From assembly GCA_016184305.1 (NCBI GenBank), contig JACPCX010000115.1, positions 1 through 31,520 of the forward strand: a DNA stretch of 31,520 bases. The letters run 5' to 3'. Below the pieces are notes generated by a model. It was not told the origin of the DNA, searched no databases, and was given only the letters and a program-made list of their open reading frames with translations. Numbering within the stretch: position 1 is the stretch's first letter; each line of letters starts with the position of its first letter. Below are positions 19,698 through 24,633 of the stretch, piece after piece. The position numbers and the translations under genes are program-made. The stretch comes from Candidatus Rokuibacteriota bacterium. Its GTDB lineage: Bacteria > Methylomirabilota > Methylomirabilia > Rokubacteriales > CSP1-6.

Positions 19698-19802
19698 ACT
19701 ACTACTTCCGAGAATCGTCGCGCCGCGCCTCGCGCGAGGAGGATTCTGATGTATTCTGGGGCCTGTTGCTCCATCAGCGACCGATCAGACCAGGAGAGTG
19801 TC

Positions 19803-20594
19803 GTGAGAGAGAACACGCTGAAGTCGATCTGGGCGCGGGGCGAGGCGGTCGTGAACGGCTGGCTGTCCATCCCTGCCTCCTTCTCCGCCGAGGTCATGGC
19901 CCACCAGGGATTCGATTCGCTCACCATCGACATGCAGCACGGGATGATCGACTACCAGACGGCCGTGACCCTGCTCCAGGCCATCTCCACCACGTCCGTG
20001 ATGCCGCTGGCTCGCGTGCCGTGGAACGATCCCGGGCGGCTCATGAAGATCCTCGATGCCGGGGTGTACGGCGTCATCTGCCCCATGATCAACACCCGCG
20101 CCCAGGCCGAGGCGCTCGTGGGCGCGTGCAAGTACCCCCCGCGGGGATTCCGGAGCTGGGGCCCCGTGCGCGCCTCCATCTACGCGGGCGCCGACTACGG
20201 CGACCGCGCCAACGCGGACATTGTTGTCATGCCGATGATCGAGACGGCCGAGGCGGTCCAGAACCTGGACGAGATCCTGAGCGTCCCCGGCGTGGACGCC
20301 ATCTACGTGGGCCCCTCCGACCTGAGCCTGGCGCTGGGCTGCAAGCCCCGGCTCGACCAGACCGACCCGCCGGTGGTGGAGGCGCAGCTGAAGATCGTGG
20401 AGGCCTGCAAGCGCCACGGGGTCGTGGCCGGCATCCATAACAACACGGCGGCCTATGCGCTCACGATGATCGCCGCCGGCTACCAGTTCGTGACGCTCGC
20501 CAGCGACAGCCGATTTCTCGCGTCGAAGGCGGCCGAGGAGGTGGCCGTGGTCCGCAAGTCTGGCGCCAGCGCCGGGAAGCTGCCCGCCTACTGA
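19803..20594 (+). CDS. HpcH/HpaI aldolase family protein
   Basis: GFDSLTIDMQHG, ARVPWN, LDAG, KYPPRG.R, MIET and YVGPSDL motifs; AGGAG before GTG 19803. Confidence 0.9.
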   Translation: MRENTLKSIWARGEAVVNGWLSIPASFSAEVMAHQGFDSLTIDMQHGMIDYQTAVTLLQAISTTSVMPLARVPWNDPGRLMKILDAGVYGVICPMINTRAQAEALVGACKYPPRGFRSWGPVRASIYAGADYGDRANADIVVMPMIETAEAVQNLDEILSVPGVDAIYVGPSDLSLALGCKPRLDQTDPPVVEAQLKIVEACKRHGVVAGIHNNTAAYALTMIAAGYQFVTLASDSRFLASKAAEEVAVVRKSGASAGKLPAY

Positions 20595-21214
20595 TGCCGC
20601 AGTTCGACGAGGCGCTCCTCGCGCGGGCGCGCGACCACCTCGCCGCCTTCCCGCGGCGGGCCACGGAGTGGGACGGACTCCGACCGGCCGCGGTGGCGGT
20701 GGTGCTCCTCGGAGATGACGAGGCGCGCGCGTGCTTTCTCCTCACGCGGCGCGCGGCGGCGCTCCGTGTCCACGCCGGCCAGTGGGCGCTGCCCGGCGGG
20801 GGCATCGAGGACGGCGAGCGCGCCGAGGGCGCGGCGCTGCGCGAGCTGTGGGAGGAGGTCGGGCTCGGGCTGGGCGGGGAGTCGGTGCTCGGGCTCCTGG
20901 ACGATTACCCCACGCGCTCCGGGTTCGTCATCACGCCGGTCATCGTGTGGGCCGGGCCCGTGGGCGAGCTCCACCCGGACCCGGACGAGGTGCAGGAGGT
21001 CCACCGGGTGCCGCTGGCGGATCTCGAGGGTCCCGGCGTCCCGCGGCTCATCCACATCCCGGAGAGCGAGCGGCCCGTGATCCAGATGCCGATTCTCGGC
21101 ACGACGCTCCACGCGCCGACGGCGGCCGTGCTCTATCAGCTCTGCGAGGTCGTGGTGCATGGCCGGACGACCCGGGTGGATCACCTGGAGCAACCCGTGT
21201 GGGCGTGGACATGA
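20594..21214 (+). CDS. Nudix hydrolase, CoA-pyrophosphatase (NudL/PCD1)-like
   Basis: LLTRRA..LR.HAGQWALPGG followed by the Nudix box AALRELWEEVG. Confidence 0.88.
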   Translation: MPQFDEALLARARDHLAAFPRRATEWDGLRPAAVAVVLLGDDEARACFLLTRRAAALRVHAGQWALPGGGIEDGERAEGAALRELWEEVGLGLGGESVLGLLDDYPTRSGFVITPVIVWAGPVGELHPDPDEVQEVHRVPLADLEGPGVPRLIHIPESERPVIQMPILGTTLHAPTAAVLYQLCEVVVHGRTTRVDHLEQPVWAWT

Positions 21215-21262
21215 GGTGGGCCGAGGCGGCCGGAGCGGAGCGAGGCGGCGAGGCGCAGGCTG

Positions 21263-21324
21263 GGCGAGCCGCAGCCGGAGGCGAGGCGAGCGCATATGGC
21301 AGACCGGGCGAGCGTGAGCGAGCC
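21263..21324 (+). repeat. Stand-alone copy of the inner repeat (copy C)
   Basis: GGCGAGCCGCAGCCGGAGGCGAGGCGAGCGCATATGGCAGACCGGGCGAGCGTGAGCGAGCC aligns with the inner part of copies A and B. Confidence 0.8.
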
Positions 21325-22360
21325 TGAGCGCGGCTTCACCCTCCTCGATGGCGGCAGGCCCGTCGAGGTGCCGGCCCGGGTCGAGGGCGGGGCGGTCAGG
21401 CTCTCGCCGCAGGCAGTCGAGGCTCTCGGCTGGCGGCTCGAGCCCGAAGGTCTGTGCCGGGAGGGGCTGTGTGTGCCGGTCCCGGCCGGTGCCGCTCTCG
21501 TCACGCCAGACGGCATCGCCCTCGAGGTGCTGGCGGCTCTCCTCGACCGGCCGCTGGCGCTGGACCTCGAGGAGGGCGTGGCGTACCTCGGTGCCTCCGC
21601 CGCCGATCGCGCCGGAGCGCTGGCCTCGCTCGAGGCGCCCGACTTCACGCTCCCCGATCTTCACGGCCGGCTCCACTCGCTGGCCGAGCACCGCGGGAAG
21701 AAGGTCTTCCTCGTCGCCTACGCCTCCTGGTGAGGGTGCCGCCTCGACCTGCCGGTGTGGCAGGCGCTGTACGAGGAGCTGAAAGCGCTCGGCTTCGTGG
21801 TGATCACCGTCGCGCTCGACCGGGGCCCGGAGGATGCACGACCCTGGATCGAGGCGGCGAGGCCGACCCATCCCTCGCTCATCGACGTCGGGCACGCGGT
21901 CGCCGACCTCTACAACATGGTGAATGTCCCCACGGTGGTCTGGATCGACGAGCGCGGCCGTATCGTCCGGCCCAACGACGTGGCCTTCGGCACCGACACC
22001 TTCCGCCACATCACGGGGATCGAGGCGGCCCGCCATCTGGGCGCGCTGCGCGCCTGGGCGCGGGGCCAGGCGCCCGTCATCGCGGCGCGAGAGGTGCGGG
22101 CCCTGCAGCGCGTGGCGAGCCAGGCGGATCAGCAGGCGCGGGCGGAGTTCGGGCTCGGTCGCTGGCTCGCCGAGCGAGGACGGGGCGAGGCGGCAGAGAG
22201 GCACTTCGTGCGGGCCGGAGAGCTGGCGCCGCACGATTTCACGATCCGGCGCGGGACCATGCCCATCCGCGGCATCGACCCCATGGGGCCAGCGTTTCGC
22301 GCGATGCTCGAGGAGTGGGTGGGGGCGGGGAAGTCGTACTACCGTCCGCTTCCCGACTGA
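21296..22360 (+). CDS. Probable selenoprotein: thioredoxin-fold redoxin (TlpA/AhpC-TSA-like) with a UGC motif, an N-terminal Cys-containing domain and a helical C-terminus; Sec at 21731-21733
   Basis: The two listed ORFs share one frame. Read-through gives APDFTLPDLHG..HSL...RGKKVFLVAYASW-U-GCRLDLPVWQ...VITVALD...NVPT..WIDERG, an intact Trx fold. A SECIS-like hairpin follows. Start is ATG 21296 or GTG 21314. Confidence 0.85.
21734..21772 (+). promoter_or_regulatory. Candidate bacterial SECIS element
   Basis: Stem CCTGCC (21748-21753) / GGCAGG (21759-21764) with a G-initiated loop GGTGT; 20 nt separate the UGA from the loop. Possible lower stem GTGC/GTAC. Confidence 0.7.
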
Positions 22361-22380
22361 ACGACACACGGGAGACAGTC

Positions 22381-23148
22381 ATGGCCAAGGCGACGCTCAA
22401 CGGCATCCAGATCGAATACCAGGATGGCGGCACCGGGCCTGCGGTGTTCCTCACCCACGGCTACTCCGCCACCGGGCGCATGTGGGACGGGCAGCGGCAG
22501 GCCCTCGGGGACCGCTACCGGATCATCTCCTGGGACATGCGCGGCCACGGGCAGACGGATAGCCCGGAGGACCCGACGCAGTACTCGCATGCCCTCACCG
22601 TGGCTGACATGCGCGCGCTCCTCCAGCATCTGGGCCTGGAGCACGCGGTGGTGGGCGGGCTCTCTCTCGGCGGCACGATGTCGCTGGCCTTCCGCCTCGC
22701 CCACCCGGAGATGGTCCGCGCGCTGGTCATCTGCGACTCGGGACCGGGTTTTCGCAATGCCGGGGCGCGGGAGGAGTGGAACCAGCAGGCGCAGAAGCGG
22801 GCGGCCGATCTCGAGGCGGTTGGCCTCGAAGCGCTTGGCGGGAGGAGCCGCGAGATGGAGGAGGCCGTGAGATACCACCGCTCGGCGCAGGGATTGGCGC
22901 ATGCGGCGCGCGGCATGCTGGCCCAGCAGGATTCGCGGATCATCGACTCCCTGCCGGGGATCGCCGCGCCCACGCTCATCATCGTGGGGGACCGGGACAC
23001 GCCTTTCTTGGCGCCGTGCGAGTACATGGCGAAGAAGATCCCCGGCGCCCGACTCGAGGTCATCGCGGGCGCGGGGCACTCGTCCAACCTGGACCAGCCG
23101 GAGGCCTTCAACCGGGTCCTGGCGTATTTCCTCGACTCGCTGGCCTGA
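22381..23148 (+). CDS. Alpha/beta hydrolase (PcaD/MenH-like)
   Basis: THGY, WDMRGHGQT, GLSLGG, GDRD and GAGHSSN motifs; GGGAG RBS. Confidence 0.88.
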   Translation: MAKATLNGIQIEYQDGGTGPAVFLTHGYSATGRMWDGQRQALGDRYRIISWDMRGHGQTDSPEDPTQYSHALTVADMRALLQHLGLEHAVVGGLSLGGTMSLAFRLAHPEMVRALVICDSGPGFRNAGAREEWNQQAQKRAADLEAVGLEALGGRSREMEEAVRYHRSAQGLAHAARGMLAQQDSRIIDSLPGIAAPTLIIVGDRDTPFLAPCEYMAKKIPGARLEVIAGAGHSSNLDQPEAFNRVLAYFLDSLA

Positions 23149-23161
23149 GGGGCACACACAC

Positions 23162-24154
23162 ATGGGCATGCTCGACGGAAAGACGGCGCTGGTGACGGGA
23201 GCCGGGCGCGGCATCGGTCGCGGGATCGCCATCGCGCTGGCCGCGGCCGGCGCCAGGGTCGTGGTCAATGACCTGGGCGCGAGCCTCGGGGGCGACGGGG
23301 TGGAGCGAGGGCCGGCGGACCAGGTCGTGGAGGAGATCAGGAAGCAGGGCGGCACGGCGCTGCCGAACTACGGCTCGGTGGCCGACTCCGAGCAGGGACC
23401 CGCCATGGTGCGGCAGGTGATCGACGCCTGGGGACGCATCGACATCCTGGTCAACGTGGCCGGCATCCTGCGCGACCGCATGATCTTCAACATGACCGAG
23501 GCCGAGTGGGACATGGTCATCGCCGTCCACCTCAAAGGCACCTTCAACTGCACCCGCGCCGCCGCCAGCGCCATGCGCCAGCAGCAGGGCGGGCGGATCA
23601 TCAGCATGTCGTCGGTCTCGGCCCTGGGCGCGCCGGGGCAGCCCAACTATGCCGCGGCCAAGGCCGGCATCCTCGGCCTCACCTGGTCCACGGCCAATGC
23701 GCTGGCCAAGTACGGGGTGACGGCCAATGCCATCCTCCCGAGCGGCGCCACCCGGATGATCGATTCGACGCCGCGCGGCCAGAAGGTGTTCGCCGAGACC
23801 GGCAAGTGGCCGAGCGAGCTGGCTGCCGGCACCGAGCGCGATCCGGACAACGTGGCGCCGCTGGTGGTCTACCTCGCGAGCGAGGCCGGCGCGGGGGTCA
23901 ACGGCCAGGTGTTCCACTCCTTCGGCTACGGCTACACGCTGCTGGCCCAGCCGCAGGCGATCAGGCGTCTGGTGGCGGATCGTCGACTGGCGCCCGAAGA
24001 GCTGGTGGCGCTCTTCCCCGGCACGCTCGGCGCCGATCTCAAGACGCCGCCGGGGACGGACTTCGGCCGGACGCTCCACGAGCGGCCCGCTGCCGAGTGG
24101 AAGGACCTCGGCGGGGGGGTGCGCCTCTGGCAGTCCCCGTGGGAGGAGCGGTGA
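23162..24154 (+). CDS. SDR oxidoreductase (hydroxyacyl-CoA dehydrogenase-like)
   Basis: TGAGRGIG, VVNDLG, AGILRDR and GQPNYAAAK motifs. Confidence 0.9.
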   Translation: MGMLDGKTALVTGAGRGIGRGIAIALAAAGARVVVNDLGASLGGDGVERGPADQVVEEIRKQGGTALPNYGSVADSEQGPAMVRQVIDAWGRIDILVNVAGILRDRMIFNMTEAEWDMVIAVHLKGTFNCTRAAASAMRQQQGGRIISMSSVSALGAPGQPNYAAAKAGILGLTWSTANALAKYGVTANAILPSGATRMIDSTPRGQKVFAETGKWPSELAAGTERDPDNVAPLVVYLASEAGAGVNGQVFHSFGYGYTLLAQPQAIRRLVADRRLAPEELVALFPGTLGADLKTPPGTDFGRTLHERPAAEWKDLGGGVRLWQSPWEER

Positions 24155-24633
24155 GGACGATTCTCCTCGTCTGCCATGCCAACACGGCCCGCAGCGTGAT
24201 GGCGCAGGCGCTCCTCCACCGGATGCTGGCGGACCGGGGCGCGCTGGACGGCGTCCGCATCCGGTGCGGGGGCATCGCCTCCTACGCGCGGGACGGCATG
24301 TTGCCGTCGCTGGATGCGCGGATCGTGCTGCGGGAGGAGGGCATTCACCTCGGCGAGGACGACCTGGTGTCCACCGATCTCAAGCGACACCGCCATCTCC
24401 TGGCGGAGGCCGACCTCATCGTGACGATGACCGTACAGCAGAAGCACATGGTGGAGGACTTCGCCGAGGCGCGCGGGCGGTCCGTGCTCACCCTGCGTGA
24501 GCTGGCCGGCGAGGAGGGTGACATCGGCGATCCCGCCACCCAGGGGGAGGAGACCTTCCGCGCCTGCCGCGACGAGATCCGGCGCTGCCTCGAGCGGTCC
24601 GTGGACCGGCTGCTCCTGGCGCTGTCGACCTGA
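24151..24633 (+). CDS. Low-molecular-weight phosphatase family protein (LMW-PTP/ArsC fold)
   Basis: ILLVCHANTARS (CX5R), ADLIVTM and DIGDP motifs; GTGA overlap with the SDR stop. Confidence 0.85.
   Translation: MRTILLVCHANTARSVMAQALLHRMLADRGALDGVRIRCGGIASYARDGMLPSLDARIVLREEGIHLGEDDLVSTDLKRHRHLLAEADLIVTMTVQQKHMVEDFAEARGRSVLTLRELAGEEGDIGDPATQGEETFRACRDEIRRCLERSVDRLLLALST

Follow-up and report, generated by a model that had tools for sequence, protein, structure and literature searches.

A three-domain thioredoxin-fold protein from a Rokubacteriales bacterium with a U-G-C motif, very probably a selenoprotein

Results

A single reading frame continues through an internal TGA

We analyzed a 31,520-nt stretch of DNA from a Candidatus Rokuibacteriota bacterium (contig JACPCX010000115.1; hereafter, the window), focusing on a gene at 21296..22360 on the forward (+) strand, on which all features described here lie. 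Within this locally G+C-rich DNA (71%), one frame of 354 codons (21296..22357) contains an in-frame TGA at 21731..21733 and closes at another TGA (22358-22360), with no stop between the two. The first piece of this frame, 21296..21733, ends in ...VFLVAYASW-TGA, after which the frame reads GGG TGC CGC CTC GAC CTG CCG GTG TGG. With the internal TGA as selenocysteine (Sec; U146), the motif at this position becomes ASW-U-G-C-R, in which Cys148 (TGC, 21737..21739) is the presumed resolving residue of a U-G-C center and occupies a column that is invariant across 49 sequences. The GTG at codon 7, which one ortholog uses, is a possible alternative start.

Gene callers close a first ORF at 21733 and open a second at the GTG at 21755. 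An earlier note on this sequence had proposed that this split divides one protein of ~350 amino acids. Consistent with that proposal, the read-through product has 354 residues, its AhpC-TSA match (aa 113-224) crosses the TGA, and its AlphaFold2 (AF2) model reaches a pTM of 0.92. The split itself, also anticipated by the note, recurs in public gene calls, where ~201-aa C-terminal fragments are numerous, the window's own included. In this phylum and several others, the 145-aa and ~201-aa pieces are labeled 'hypothetical' or 'thioredoxin family'.

The gene is present in groundwater and soil sequencing runs. At 21731-21733, where the note had considered a sequencing error, covering contigs from three DNA runs of three studies carry no other letter, and these same contigs differ synonymously at 21724, 21727 and 21736. 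A search for the gene in RNA libraries returned one contig spanning 21781-21995 and another spanning 21626-21667 with 5 differences, none crossing the TGA. Because DNA carry-over is possible in these libraries and no contig bridges the TGA, we make no claim of expression from them. TGA is also the stop codon of this gene and of all four neighboring genes, and is thus not reassigned.

The read-through protein has a ResA-like domain between two additional domains

The AF2 model of the read-through protein (pLDDT 93.6) shows a thioredoxin fold that is continuous over the TGA position. This central domain (aa ~106-235; 21611..22000) matches AhpC-TSA (PF00578; E 1.5e-17, 64.2 bits against a gathering threshold of 26) and Redoxin (3.1e-13) in Pfam, and its profile matches in the PDB include 3kcm (2.7e-21) and ResA 1st9 (2.7e-19). 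Structural comparison points in the same direction, with Foldseek matching ResA 1st9_A (E 1.4e-11, TM 0.82 on the target) and VIA-align matching 3gl3_A (Z 15.9, rmsd 2.2, 140 aligned) and ResA 2f9s_A (Z 15.0). The insertions typical of ResA are present in this thioredoxin fold. When aligned by profile to the WCxPC active site of ResA-like chains, the site reads WC-G-(gap)-C, one residue shorter, such that Cys148 aligns with the second Cys of CxxC past a one-residue gap. This HMM alignment agrees with the note's description of the redox motif as U-G-C rather than CxxC.

The N-terminal domain (aa 1-105; 21296..21610) is mostly beta and matches no Pfam family. Modeled alone, it reaches an AF2 pLDDT of 85.5. 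It contains the Cys pair for which the note had singled out the stretch LCREGLCVP: C54 (21455-21457) and C59 (21470-21472), a CxxxxC arrangement invariant in 56/56 N-domains. Foldseek returned no match for this domain at E <= 0.001, and the best VIA-align results were 5h3k_A (Z 6.0, rmsd 4.2, 92 aligned) and the usher N-domain 4b0e_A (Z 5.5). Scores of 6.0 and 5.5 are within the range common for VIA-align, and we therefore dropped a fold assignment.

The C-terminal tail (aa ~236-354; 22001..22357) is helical in the AF2 model. Weak TPR matches accord with the TPR-like tail that the note had described: in a profile search, one helix pair at ~270-309 matches designed or consensus TPR proteins, and the Pfam models TPR_12 (14.2 bits; gathering 30.1), TPR_2 (13.6; 27) and TPR_14 (12.8; 23.5) all score below gathering. 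As no Pfam TPR model reaches its threshold, we refer to the tail as TPR-like only. A hydropathy scan of the first 40 windows found no hydrophobic N-terminal segment (19-residue maximum of 0.31).

The TGA column alternates between Sec and Cys codons across several phyla

Among the window and its relatives' genomes, all 40 loci carry TGA at the identical aligned column. A wider set of 178 distinct loci divides into 158 with TGA and 20 with TGC or TGT at this column; by the titles of their database records, these loci come from Rokubacteria/Methylomirabilota, Chloroflexota, Binatia, Actinomycetota, Myxococcota/delta-proteobacteria and others. A FastTree phylogeny of the 178 rows requires at least 6 switches between Sec and Cys. 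Invariant columns flank the TGA on either side.

Cys is the usual partner residue of Sec in homologs. Here, the sequence SWCGCR occurs in 13 full-length database proteins, and these Cys homologs, single ORFs of ~345 aa, align end to end. Four Cys forms were verified at the DNA level as TGC or TGT (L093, L102, L104 and L136). Both states that the note had proposed to look for in homologs at this column, Cys or a retained TGA, are seen. Together, these findings strongly support, at the level of comparative sequence, recoding of the UGA at codon 146 to selenocysteine.

A conserved hairpin follows the UGA

Downstream of the UGA lies a SECIS-type hairpin (21748..21764) in which a 6-bp stem, CCUGCC/GGCAGG, encloses the 5-nt loop GGUGU. 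Its 5′ arm (CCTGCC) occupies 21748-21753, its loop (GGTGT) 21754-21758 and its 3′ arm (GGCAGG) 21759-21764. By these coordinates, a spacer of 14 nt separates the UGA from the stem and one of 20 nt separates it from the loop, the latter being the distance given in the earlier note.

The hairpin differs between Sec and Cys forms. A 5-bp stem core can pair in 158/158 TGA forms versus 8/20 Cys forms, with the latter showing CAA, CTC, CTA and GAG changes in the core. Across all TGA forms the loop follows N-G-(U/G)-N-U, and four variant stem arms still pair through G.U. True compensatory double changes were not found in the stem of TGA forms, which shows only single changes that preserve G.U pairing. 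After correction for relatedness, the Sec-versus-Cys difference in hairpin integrity has too little statistical power (4 independent pairs on supported branches; median sign-test p 0.5).

Codon usage within the stem is also constrained. For the Leu of the stem, 157/158 TGA forms use CTG and none uses CTC. In the same genes, CTG makes up 16-59% at 17 further conserved Leu columns, and at most such columns CTC is the commonest Leu codon. Likewise, the codon of Q156 is CAG in 157/157 cases versus 118/134 at Q279.

By energy alone, the region from 21725 to 21800 is unexceptional (z = -0.89), with 35/200 shuffles folding equally well or better. Hairpins of such energy are ordinary in DNA of 71% G+C, and the weight of the argument therefore rests on conservation of the hairpin. 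Scanning 21000-22600 against Rfam at E <= 10 produced only five chance-level miRNA/snoRNA rows and no SECIS family, and RNAalifold on 40 sequences recovered nothing beyond the short hairpin and a weak hairpin of 4 bp; a lower stem was not conserved. The SECIS of E. coli fdhF is an in-coding hairpin right downstream of the UGA with G-U in its apical loop. The hairpin described here shares the position shortly past the UGA within the coding sequence and the G-U of the apical loop. Unlike SECIS elements of the fdhF type, however, its conserved part consists only of a 5-6 bp stem and a 5-nt loop, and a conserved lower stem containing the UGA was not found. The pairing and codon bias across homologs strongly support selection on this hairpin at the RNA level.

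Sec machinery is clustered in relatives and partly found in the window's assembly

The earlier note had made the Sec machinery of the genome a check on its reading, and the outcome is divided. The window's own assembly encodes SelD (345.7 bits), whose gene itself has one in-frame TGA in the context ...CAG-U-ASK.... By contrast, neither selA nor selB nor tRNA-Sec turned up in this assembly with family models, the SelB-wing_3 and SelA Pfam models and ARAGORN, or by blastn/tblastn with the tRNA-Sec, SelA and SelB of relatives; the SelB search matched only IF2/EF-type GTPases. The assembly is rated 88.8% complete, comprises 3.2 Mb versus 4.7-5.4 Mb for congeners, and yields 25 tRNAs by ARAGORN. 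In all five relatives tested, selA and selB score above cut-off and the sel genes sit together as one selC-selA-selB cluster (5/5). tRNA-Sec exceeds gathering in 4/5, with the fifth interrupted by a contig end.

Neighboring genes show little recurrence beyond the phylum

We surveyed the neighborhood of 159 loci by BLAST with the window's neighbors, which gave a cleaner picture than a clustering contaminated with spurious, low-complexity ORFs from G+C-rich DNA. HpcH (17 loci), NUDIX (23) and LMW phosphatase (20) genes occur only beside those loci that resemble the window most (L059-L105), nearly all of which are titled Rokubacteria or Methylomirabilota. An alpha/beta hydrolase accompanies 20 of the 159 loci and an SDR 38, at 24-32% identity outside L059-L105. 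No neighbor clearly recurs beyond the phylum among these 159 loci, and we dropped the naming of a partner from the alpha/beta hydrolase or SDR, as their recurrence is too weak.

The protein belongs to a sister subfamily of NF041054

The top NCBIfam match of the protein is NF041054 (WAxxUGC_long), an equivalog model of 354 positions described as 'ResA-like WAxxUGC motif-containing protein'. The match is strong (2.9e-73, 247.2 bits) but lies below the cut-off of 300, as do those of three orthologs (244.9, 249.2 and 247.3 bits), such that 0/4 reach it. Members of a paralogous WASWUGC clade, 43-50% identical to the window clade, score 353.9, 345.5, 305.3, 301.8 and 281.8 bits, and 4/5 pass. Two of the relatives' genomes (G016 and G036) carry both clades, indicating that the window clade is a sister subfamily to NF041054. 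The two share their length, the SW-U-G-C-R core and alignment of the N-domain and redoxin domain to profile positions 16-204. They differ at the first residue of the motif, which in the window is Y (Y-A-S-W-U-G-C) rather than W; W is found here in some orthologs (L028, L029) and in the entire paralogous clade.

ResA, TlpA, CcmG (DsbE) and StoA are extracytoplasmic thiol-disulfide oxidoreductases that act in cytochrome and spore maturation. The window protein shares their fold and the placement of the attacking residue after a Trp. In contrast to their W-C-x-x-C, its U-x-C site is one residue shorter and has a predicted selenium in place of sulfur. It further differs in having no signal peptide or membrane anchor in the hydropathy scan and in its additional N- and C-terminal domains. 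Its score against the ResA model NF002854 is 62.8 bits (cut-off 170).

The motif of the family's Cys forms, SWCGCR, is that of the C-G-C site of Woycechowsky and Raines (2003), in whose hands CXC (Cys-Gly-Cys) sites in an engineered thioredoxin and a peptide reportedly mimic protein-disulfide-isomerase. In contrast to that engineered site, the motif here is natural and mostly carries Sec.

The note had described UGC-type Prx-like selenoproteins as already known from metagenomes, and the literature bears this out. A 'Prx-like (UGC-containing)' selenoprotein family was catalogued in 2008 by Zhang and Gladyshev in their GOS survey (PMC2398784), where the passages available describe a pfam00578 match, a U-G-C motif, many Cys homologs and greater abundance in non-marine samples. 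A UGC-type Prx-like/TlpA-like family also appears in a table row of PMC13188914, and MDE0950781.1 is a named member of the UGC-containing TlpA family. By fold, motif and description, the window protein fits the Prx-like (UGC-containing) family as those passages present it: both have a thioredoxin fold with a pfam00578 match, U-G-C and Cys homologs, and the reported non-marine abundance agrees with the occurrence of the window gene in runs from groundwater and soil. The same excerpted descriptions mention no N-domain, TPR-like tail or function. Literature searches returned no paper on 'WAxxUGC' or on a selenoprotein 'UGC motif', and one unrelated item for Rokubacteria selenoproteins; 'UGC' is absent from the main text of PMC5029168.

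Discussion

We consider it very likely that the product of this gene is a selenoprotein of the U-G-C type with three domains and a thioredoxin fold, probably cytoplasmic, its UGA being recoded and its hairpin under selection. Alternatively, the TGA could be a nonsense mutation in a pseudogene or an error of sequencing or assembly, with the full-length protein never made, as the callers' stop at 21733 and restart at 21755 and an assembly without selA, selB and selC might suggest. A TGA column shared by 158/178 distinct loci from several phyla is hard to reconcile with this, as are conserved flanks on both sides, agreement at 21731-21733 among contigs of three DNA runs, and a SelD in the same genome that likewise has an in-frame TGA; such conservation in practice refutes a pseudogene or error, to which we assign a vanishingly small probability. 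Nor do we give any real credence to a pair of genes, the first encoding 145 aa of N-terminal sequence and the second a 201-aa protein from the GTG at 21755. Each piece is an open frame with a possible start and ~201-aa fragments abound as database entries, but the break would come right at the active site, parting strand 1 of the thioredoxin fold from helix 1, against both the single ~345-aa ORFs of the Cys homologs and the compact read-through model (pTM 0.92). Decoding of the UGA as Trp, Gly or Cys, through a changed code or near-cognate suppression, would account for Sec machinery not being found in the window's assembly. It is nevertheless highly improbable, given that TGA serves as a stop in the gene and its four neighbors, homologs without Sec always have Cys instead, selA, selB and selC are present in relatives, and plain suppression gives no role to the hairpin conserved at SECIS distance.

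A different question is whether the Sec center, instead of acting as a thiol-disulfide oxidoreductase, is a GPx- or Prx-like peroxidase that reduces hydroperoxides via a selenenic acid. Several observations lean toward a peroxidase: AhpC/TSA is the top Pfam match (64.2 bits, gathering 26), GSHPx also matches weakly (E 0.0011), and the family is called 'Prx-like' in PMC2398784. Bcp, AhpE and GPx chains are also among the structural neighbors (Z 10-12), yet in both sequence and structure the protein lies nearest to ResA, DsbE and TlpA rather than to Prx. A thioredoxin-type Trp precedes U (ASW-U), and the resolving Cys is one residue off, like in CxxC-type enzymes. Peroxiredoxins have a Thr or Ser three residues ahead of the catalytic Cys; at that position the window protein has Ala. 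On balance, a peroxidase seems unlikely, though it deserves to be taken seriously.

For the preferred selenoprotein with thiol-disulfide chemistry, a mechanism can be outlined by analogy. As in bacterial Sec insertion generally, SelB carrying Sec-tRNA(Sec) would dock on the hairpin with its apical G-U. U146, replacing the first Cys of WCxxC, would be the exposed attacker at the N-terminus of helix 1. Given its fold, and by analogy with ResA/TlpA chemistry, it may attack a substrate disulfide, another oxidized sulfur or a peroxide. Cys148, one residue off, would then resolve this intermediate by forming an intramolecular selenenylsulfide, to be reduced in turn by a thiol reductant. The CxxxxC pair of the N-domain is probably a second redox or ligand site, and the TPR-like tail is probably a partner-binding surface; both roles are putative. 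A more specific proposal is that the three-domain form is a distinct cytoplasmic seleno-enzyme whose shortened W-U-G-C center would form a strained and unusually oxidizing selenenylsulfide, such that it would act as a disulfide isomerase/oxidase or peroxide sensor, exchanging electrons with the CxxxxC of the N-domain while the tail selects the client. We regard this proposal as speculative and improbable as a whole.

For a selenoprotein specialist there is nothing surprising here; the find is sound and ordinary. Its practical worth is in annotation, as the gene is currently cut in two and the curated NCBIfam model misses the sister clade. On the biochemical side, it points to a widespread family, mostly in Sec form among the sampled loci, whose thioredoxin fold has a naturally occurring C/U-G-C site. 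It also adds evidence for wide use of selenocysteine by soil and groundwater bacteria.

An in-frame UGA alternates only with cysteine

The open reading frame at 21296..21733 stops, as the earlier note described, at ...KKVFLVAYASW-TGA, and beyond this codon (residue 146, 21731-21733) the same frame continues as G-C-R-L-D-L-P-V-W-Q and stays open until the TGA at 22358-22360, giving a read-through frame of 354 codons. TGA is a normal stop in this genome: it terminates the selenoprotein gene and its four neighbours, the first five genes of the order at 19749-24633 (aldolase through SDR). Contigs from three DNA runs covering codon 146, each from a different study, show no alternative letter at 21731-21733, and they carry synonymous variants at 21724, 21727 and 21736.

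Across 60 relatives' genomes, which yielded both orthologs and paralogs, every match spanning residue 146 at E <= 1e-57 contains exactly one in-frame TGA. At this column TGA lies inside SW-U-GCR in 40/40 loci, comprising the window's own and 39 from relatives (39/39 without L038, a locus from the unpublished genome G025 on which none of the conclusions rests). Scanning public genome contigs in two rounds brought in a further 80 loci (75 TGA, 4 TGC, 1 TGT) and 79 loci (60 TGA, 18 TGC, 1 TGT). After duplicate removal, 178 distinct loci comprised 158 with TGA and 20 with Cys codons, a ratio that is biased as a frequency because loci were picked by similarity to the queries. By record title, the loci come from Rokubacteria/Methylomirabilota, Chloroflexota (Dehalococcoidia, Tepidiformaceae), Binatia, Actinomycetota, Myxococcota/delta-proteobacteria and others. 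All 13 aligned full-length database proteins with cysteine at this column read SWCGCR, and TGC or TGT was confirmed in the DNA of four such proteins (L093, L102, L104 and L136). On a FastTree of the 178 rows, built with the trait column masked, there are at least six switches between Sec and Cys. These data show that UGA-146 is a conserved coding position, alternating solely with Cys. The gene is a real selenoprotein gene, mis-split at the TGA, as the earlier note had proposed.

Some individual loci were unusual. The ortholog of one congener (L024, G001:C217:29002-30117) is split over two matches, one to residues 3-266 and one to residues 252-354, a pattern suggestive of a frameshift or an error of assembly in the C-terminal part. 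Contigs titled Candidatus Nitrosocosmicus sp. (L061) and Margulisiibacteriota (L082/L226) carry orthologs with 63-74% identity to the gene in the window. L061 shares its NUDIX neighbour with the Rokubacteria loci, and its contig may therefore sit in the wrong organism's bin.

A coding-region hairpin follows the UGA

The hairpin described in the earlier note is present, with a 5′ arm CCTGCC (21748-21753), a loop GGTGT (21754-21758) and a 3′ arm GGCAGG (21759-21764); the stem thus begins 14 nt, and the loop 20 nt, past the UGA. By itself this hairpin is unremarkable at 71% G+C (folding of 21725-21800, z = -0.89, with 35/200 shuffles at least equally stable), and no Rfam family matched the region. 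Its 5-bp core CUGCC/GGCAG can nevertheless pair in 158/158 TGA forms, four variant arms (CGG for CAG, CUGUC twice, UUGCC) retaining pairing via G.U, and the loop reads N-G-(U/G)-N-U in all 158. Among the Cys forms the core pairs in 8/20, the others having CAA, CTC, CTA, ATG or GAG changes. Relatedness weakens this contrast (supported branches yield only four independent Sec/Cys pairs, too few for a sign test to reach significance), making a within-gene codon control more telling. In TGA forms the stem leucine L152 is encoded by CTG in 157/158 (TTG once, CTC never), as against a CTG share of 16-59% at 17 other conserved Leu columns of the same genes, where CTC is mostly commonest. Likewise, Q156 is CAG in 157/157, versus 118/134 for Q279. 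Third positions that fall in the loop, those of a Pro and a Val codon, change freely (CCG 97, CCC 56; GTC 93, GTG 56). Frozen stem codons beside freely varying loop third bases indicate that the RNA stem is itself under selection. No true compensatory double substitutions were seen in it; overall, the sequence pattern is as expected for a SECIS element within a coding region.

The Sec machinery of the lineage

The selenoprotein reading calls for sel genes, and the window's own assembly supplied these in part. Its SelD (selenophosphate synthetase) gene (C18:28407-29345, minus strand; L007:1501-2439) scores 345.7 bits, over cut-off, and carries one in-frame TGA within the N-terminal active-site loop (...CAG-U-ASK...), making it a selenoprotein gene itself. 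Searches of the assembly with family models, ARAGORN and BLAST with congeners' genes did not find selA, selB or tRNA-Sec. The assembly is rated 88.8% complete, spans 3.2 Mb versus 4.7-5.4 Mb in three congeners, and yields only 25 tRNA genes by ARAGORN. Five relatives were searched, three from the same genus and two from the same family: selA and selB score over cut-off in 5/5 and tRNA-Sec over gathering in 4/5, the fifth being cut by a contig end. All five have one selC-selA-selB cluster, so that loss of one contig would remove all three genes. The cluster is probably unassembled here, and the relatives show that the window's lineage has Sec machinery.

In the same assembly, ARAGORN also called a 'tRNA-???' of 96 nt whose anticodon has four bases (catg; C36, complement 33411-33506); blastn found no likeness between it and the relatives' tRNA-Sec.

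A sister subfamily of a known selenoprotein kind

The read-through protein matches Pfam AhpC-TSA (1.5e-17, aa 113-224) and Redoxin, indicating that the fold is continuous over the TGA. An AlphaFold2 model built from 49 sequences is compact and confident (pLDDT 93.6, pTM 0.92), with a mostly beta N-domain (aa ~12-98), a thioredoxin fold (aa ~106-235) and a C-terminal helical tail, in which TPR models give only sub-threshold Pfam matches (aa 268-318). The middle domain superposes on ResA/DsbE-like chains (1st9_A, Foldseek E 1.4e-11; 3gl3_A, VIA-align Z 15.9, rmsd 2.2 over 140 residues; 2f9s_A, Z 15.0). The family profile 'asWCG.CRedLp' aligns opposite 'WATWCPpCREEIP' of these chains, placing U146 at the first, attacking Cys position and C148 at the second. 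The U-G-C motif put forward in place of CxxC is thus a C/U-x-C site, with one residue fewer between the redox residues. Modelled alone (pLDDT 85.5), the N-domain had no Foldseek match at E <= 0.001 and no convincing VIA-align relatives (best Z 6.0 and 5.5). Its Cys pair, noted previously, is invariant (C54/C59, 56/56 sequences).

The top NCBIfam match is the curated family NF041054 (WAxxUGC_long), 'ResA-like WAxxUGC motif-containing protein' (2.9e-73), yet the window's protein scores 247.2 bits, below the curated cut-off of 300. Its orthologs score 245-249 (0/4 at cut-off, window counted) and three Cys forms 266-271, whereas a paralogous W-A-S-W-U-G-C clade, 43-50% identical, has 4/5 at cut-off. 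Since both clades occur in two relatives' genomes (G016 and G036), the window's gene is, on these sequence scores, a sister subfamily of NF041054, with a common architecture and a diverged C-terminal part. The earlier note's statement that UGC-type Prx-like selenoproteins were already known is borne out by that curated family and by a row of the GOS selenoproteome, 'Prx-like (UGC-containing)' (pfam00578, motif UGC, figures 46, 15, 855), a family described there as more abundant in non-marine samples (PMC2398784). A review (PMC13188914) also gives the family a row in a table. Peng et al. (PMC5029168) do not use the string 'UGC' in their main text, and their supplements may bear on the point. 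The selenoprotein kind is already known and curated, and the window's gene joins it as a new member, a sister subfamily.

Relatives' genomes of this order also hold many shorter redoxin-domain paralogs with a single in-frame TGA, or sometimes two adjacent (for example G003:C80:346534-346947 and 347186-347629), suggesting several more thioredoxin-fold selenoprotein genes per genome.

Possible function

In bacterial Sec insertion, SelB with Sec-tRNA(Sec) binds a hairpin and brings Sec to the UGA. By analogy, the complex would dock here on the G-U loop and deliver Sec to UGA-146. Judging from the fold, the U146 selenolate would attack an oxidised substrate, Cys148 would resolve the adduct to a selenenylsulfide spanning one Gly, and reduction by a thiol would restore the enzyme. 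Thioredoxin scaffolds with a C-G-C site are more oxidising and isomerase-like, a character that may extend to the U-G-C selenoprotein. The main functional rival, a peroxidase role, seems to us rather improbable. A hydropathy scan found no hydrophobic N-terminal segment, and on that basis the selenoprotein is probably cytoplasmic, in which it differs from ResA and TlpA.

Gene neighbourhoods at 159 loci gave no robust partner gene. In the window (19749-24633) the order is HpcH/HpaI aldolase, NUDIX hydrolase, selenoprotein (21296..22360, forward strand), alpha/beta hydrolase, long SDR and LMW phosphatase-like; the NUDIX, HpcH and LMW-phosphatase neighbours are confined to the loci most similar to the window's. 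In 38/159 loci an SDR gene adjoins the redoxin gene, Chloroflexota among them, where the SDRs have only 27-31% identity to the window's. Within the protein, the N-domain cysteines together with the TPR-like tail point to a possible second site and a partner.
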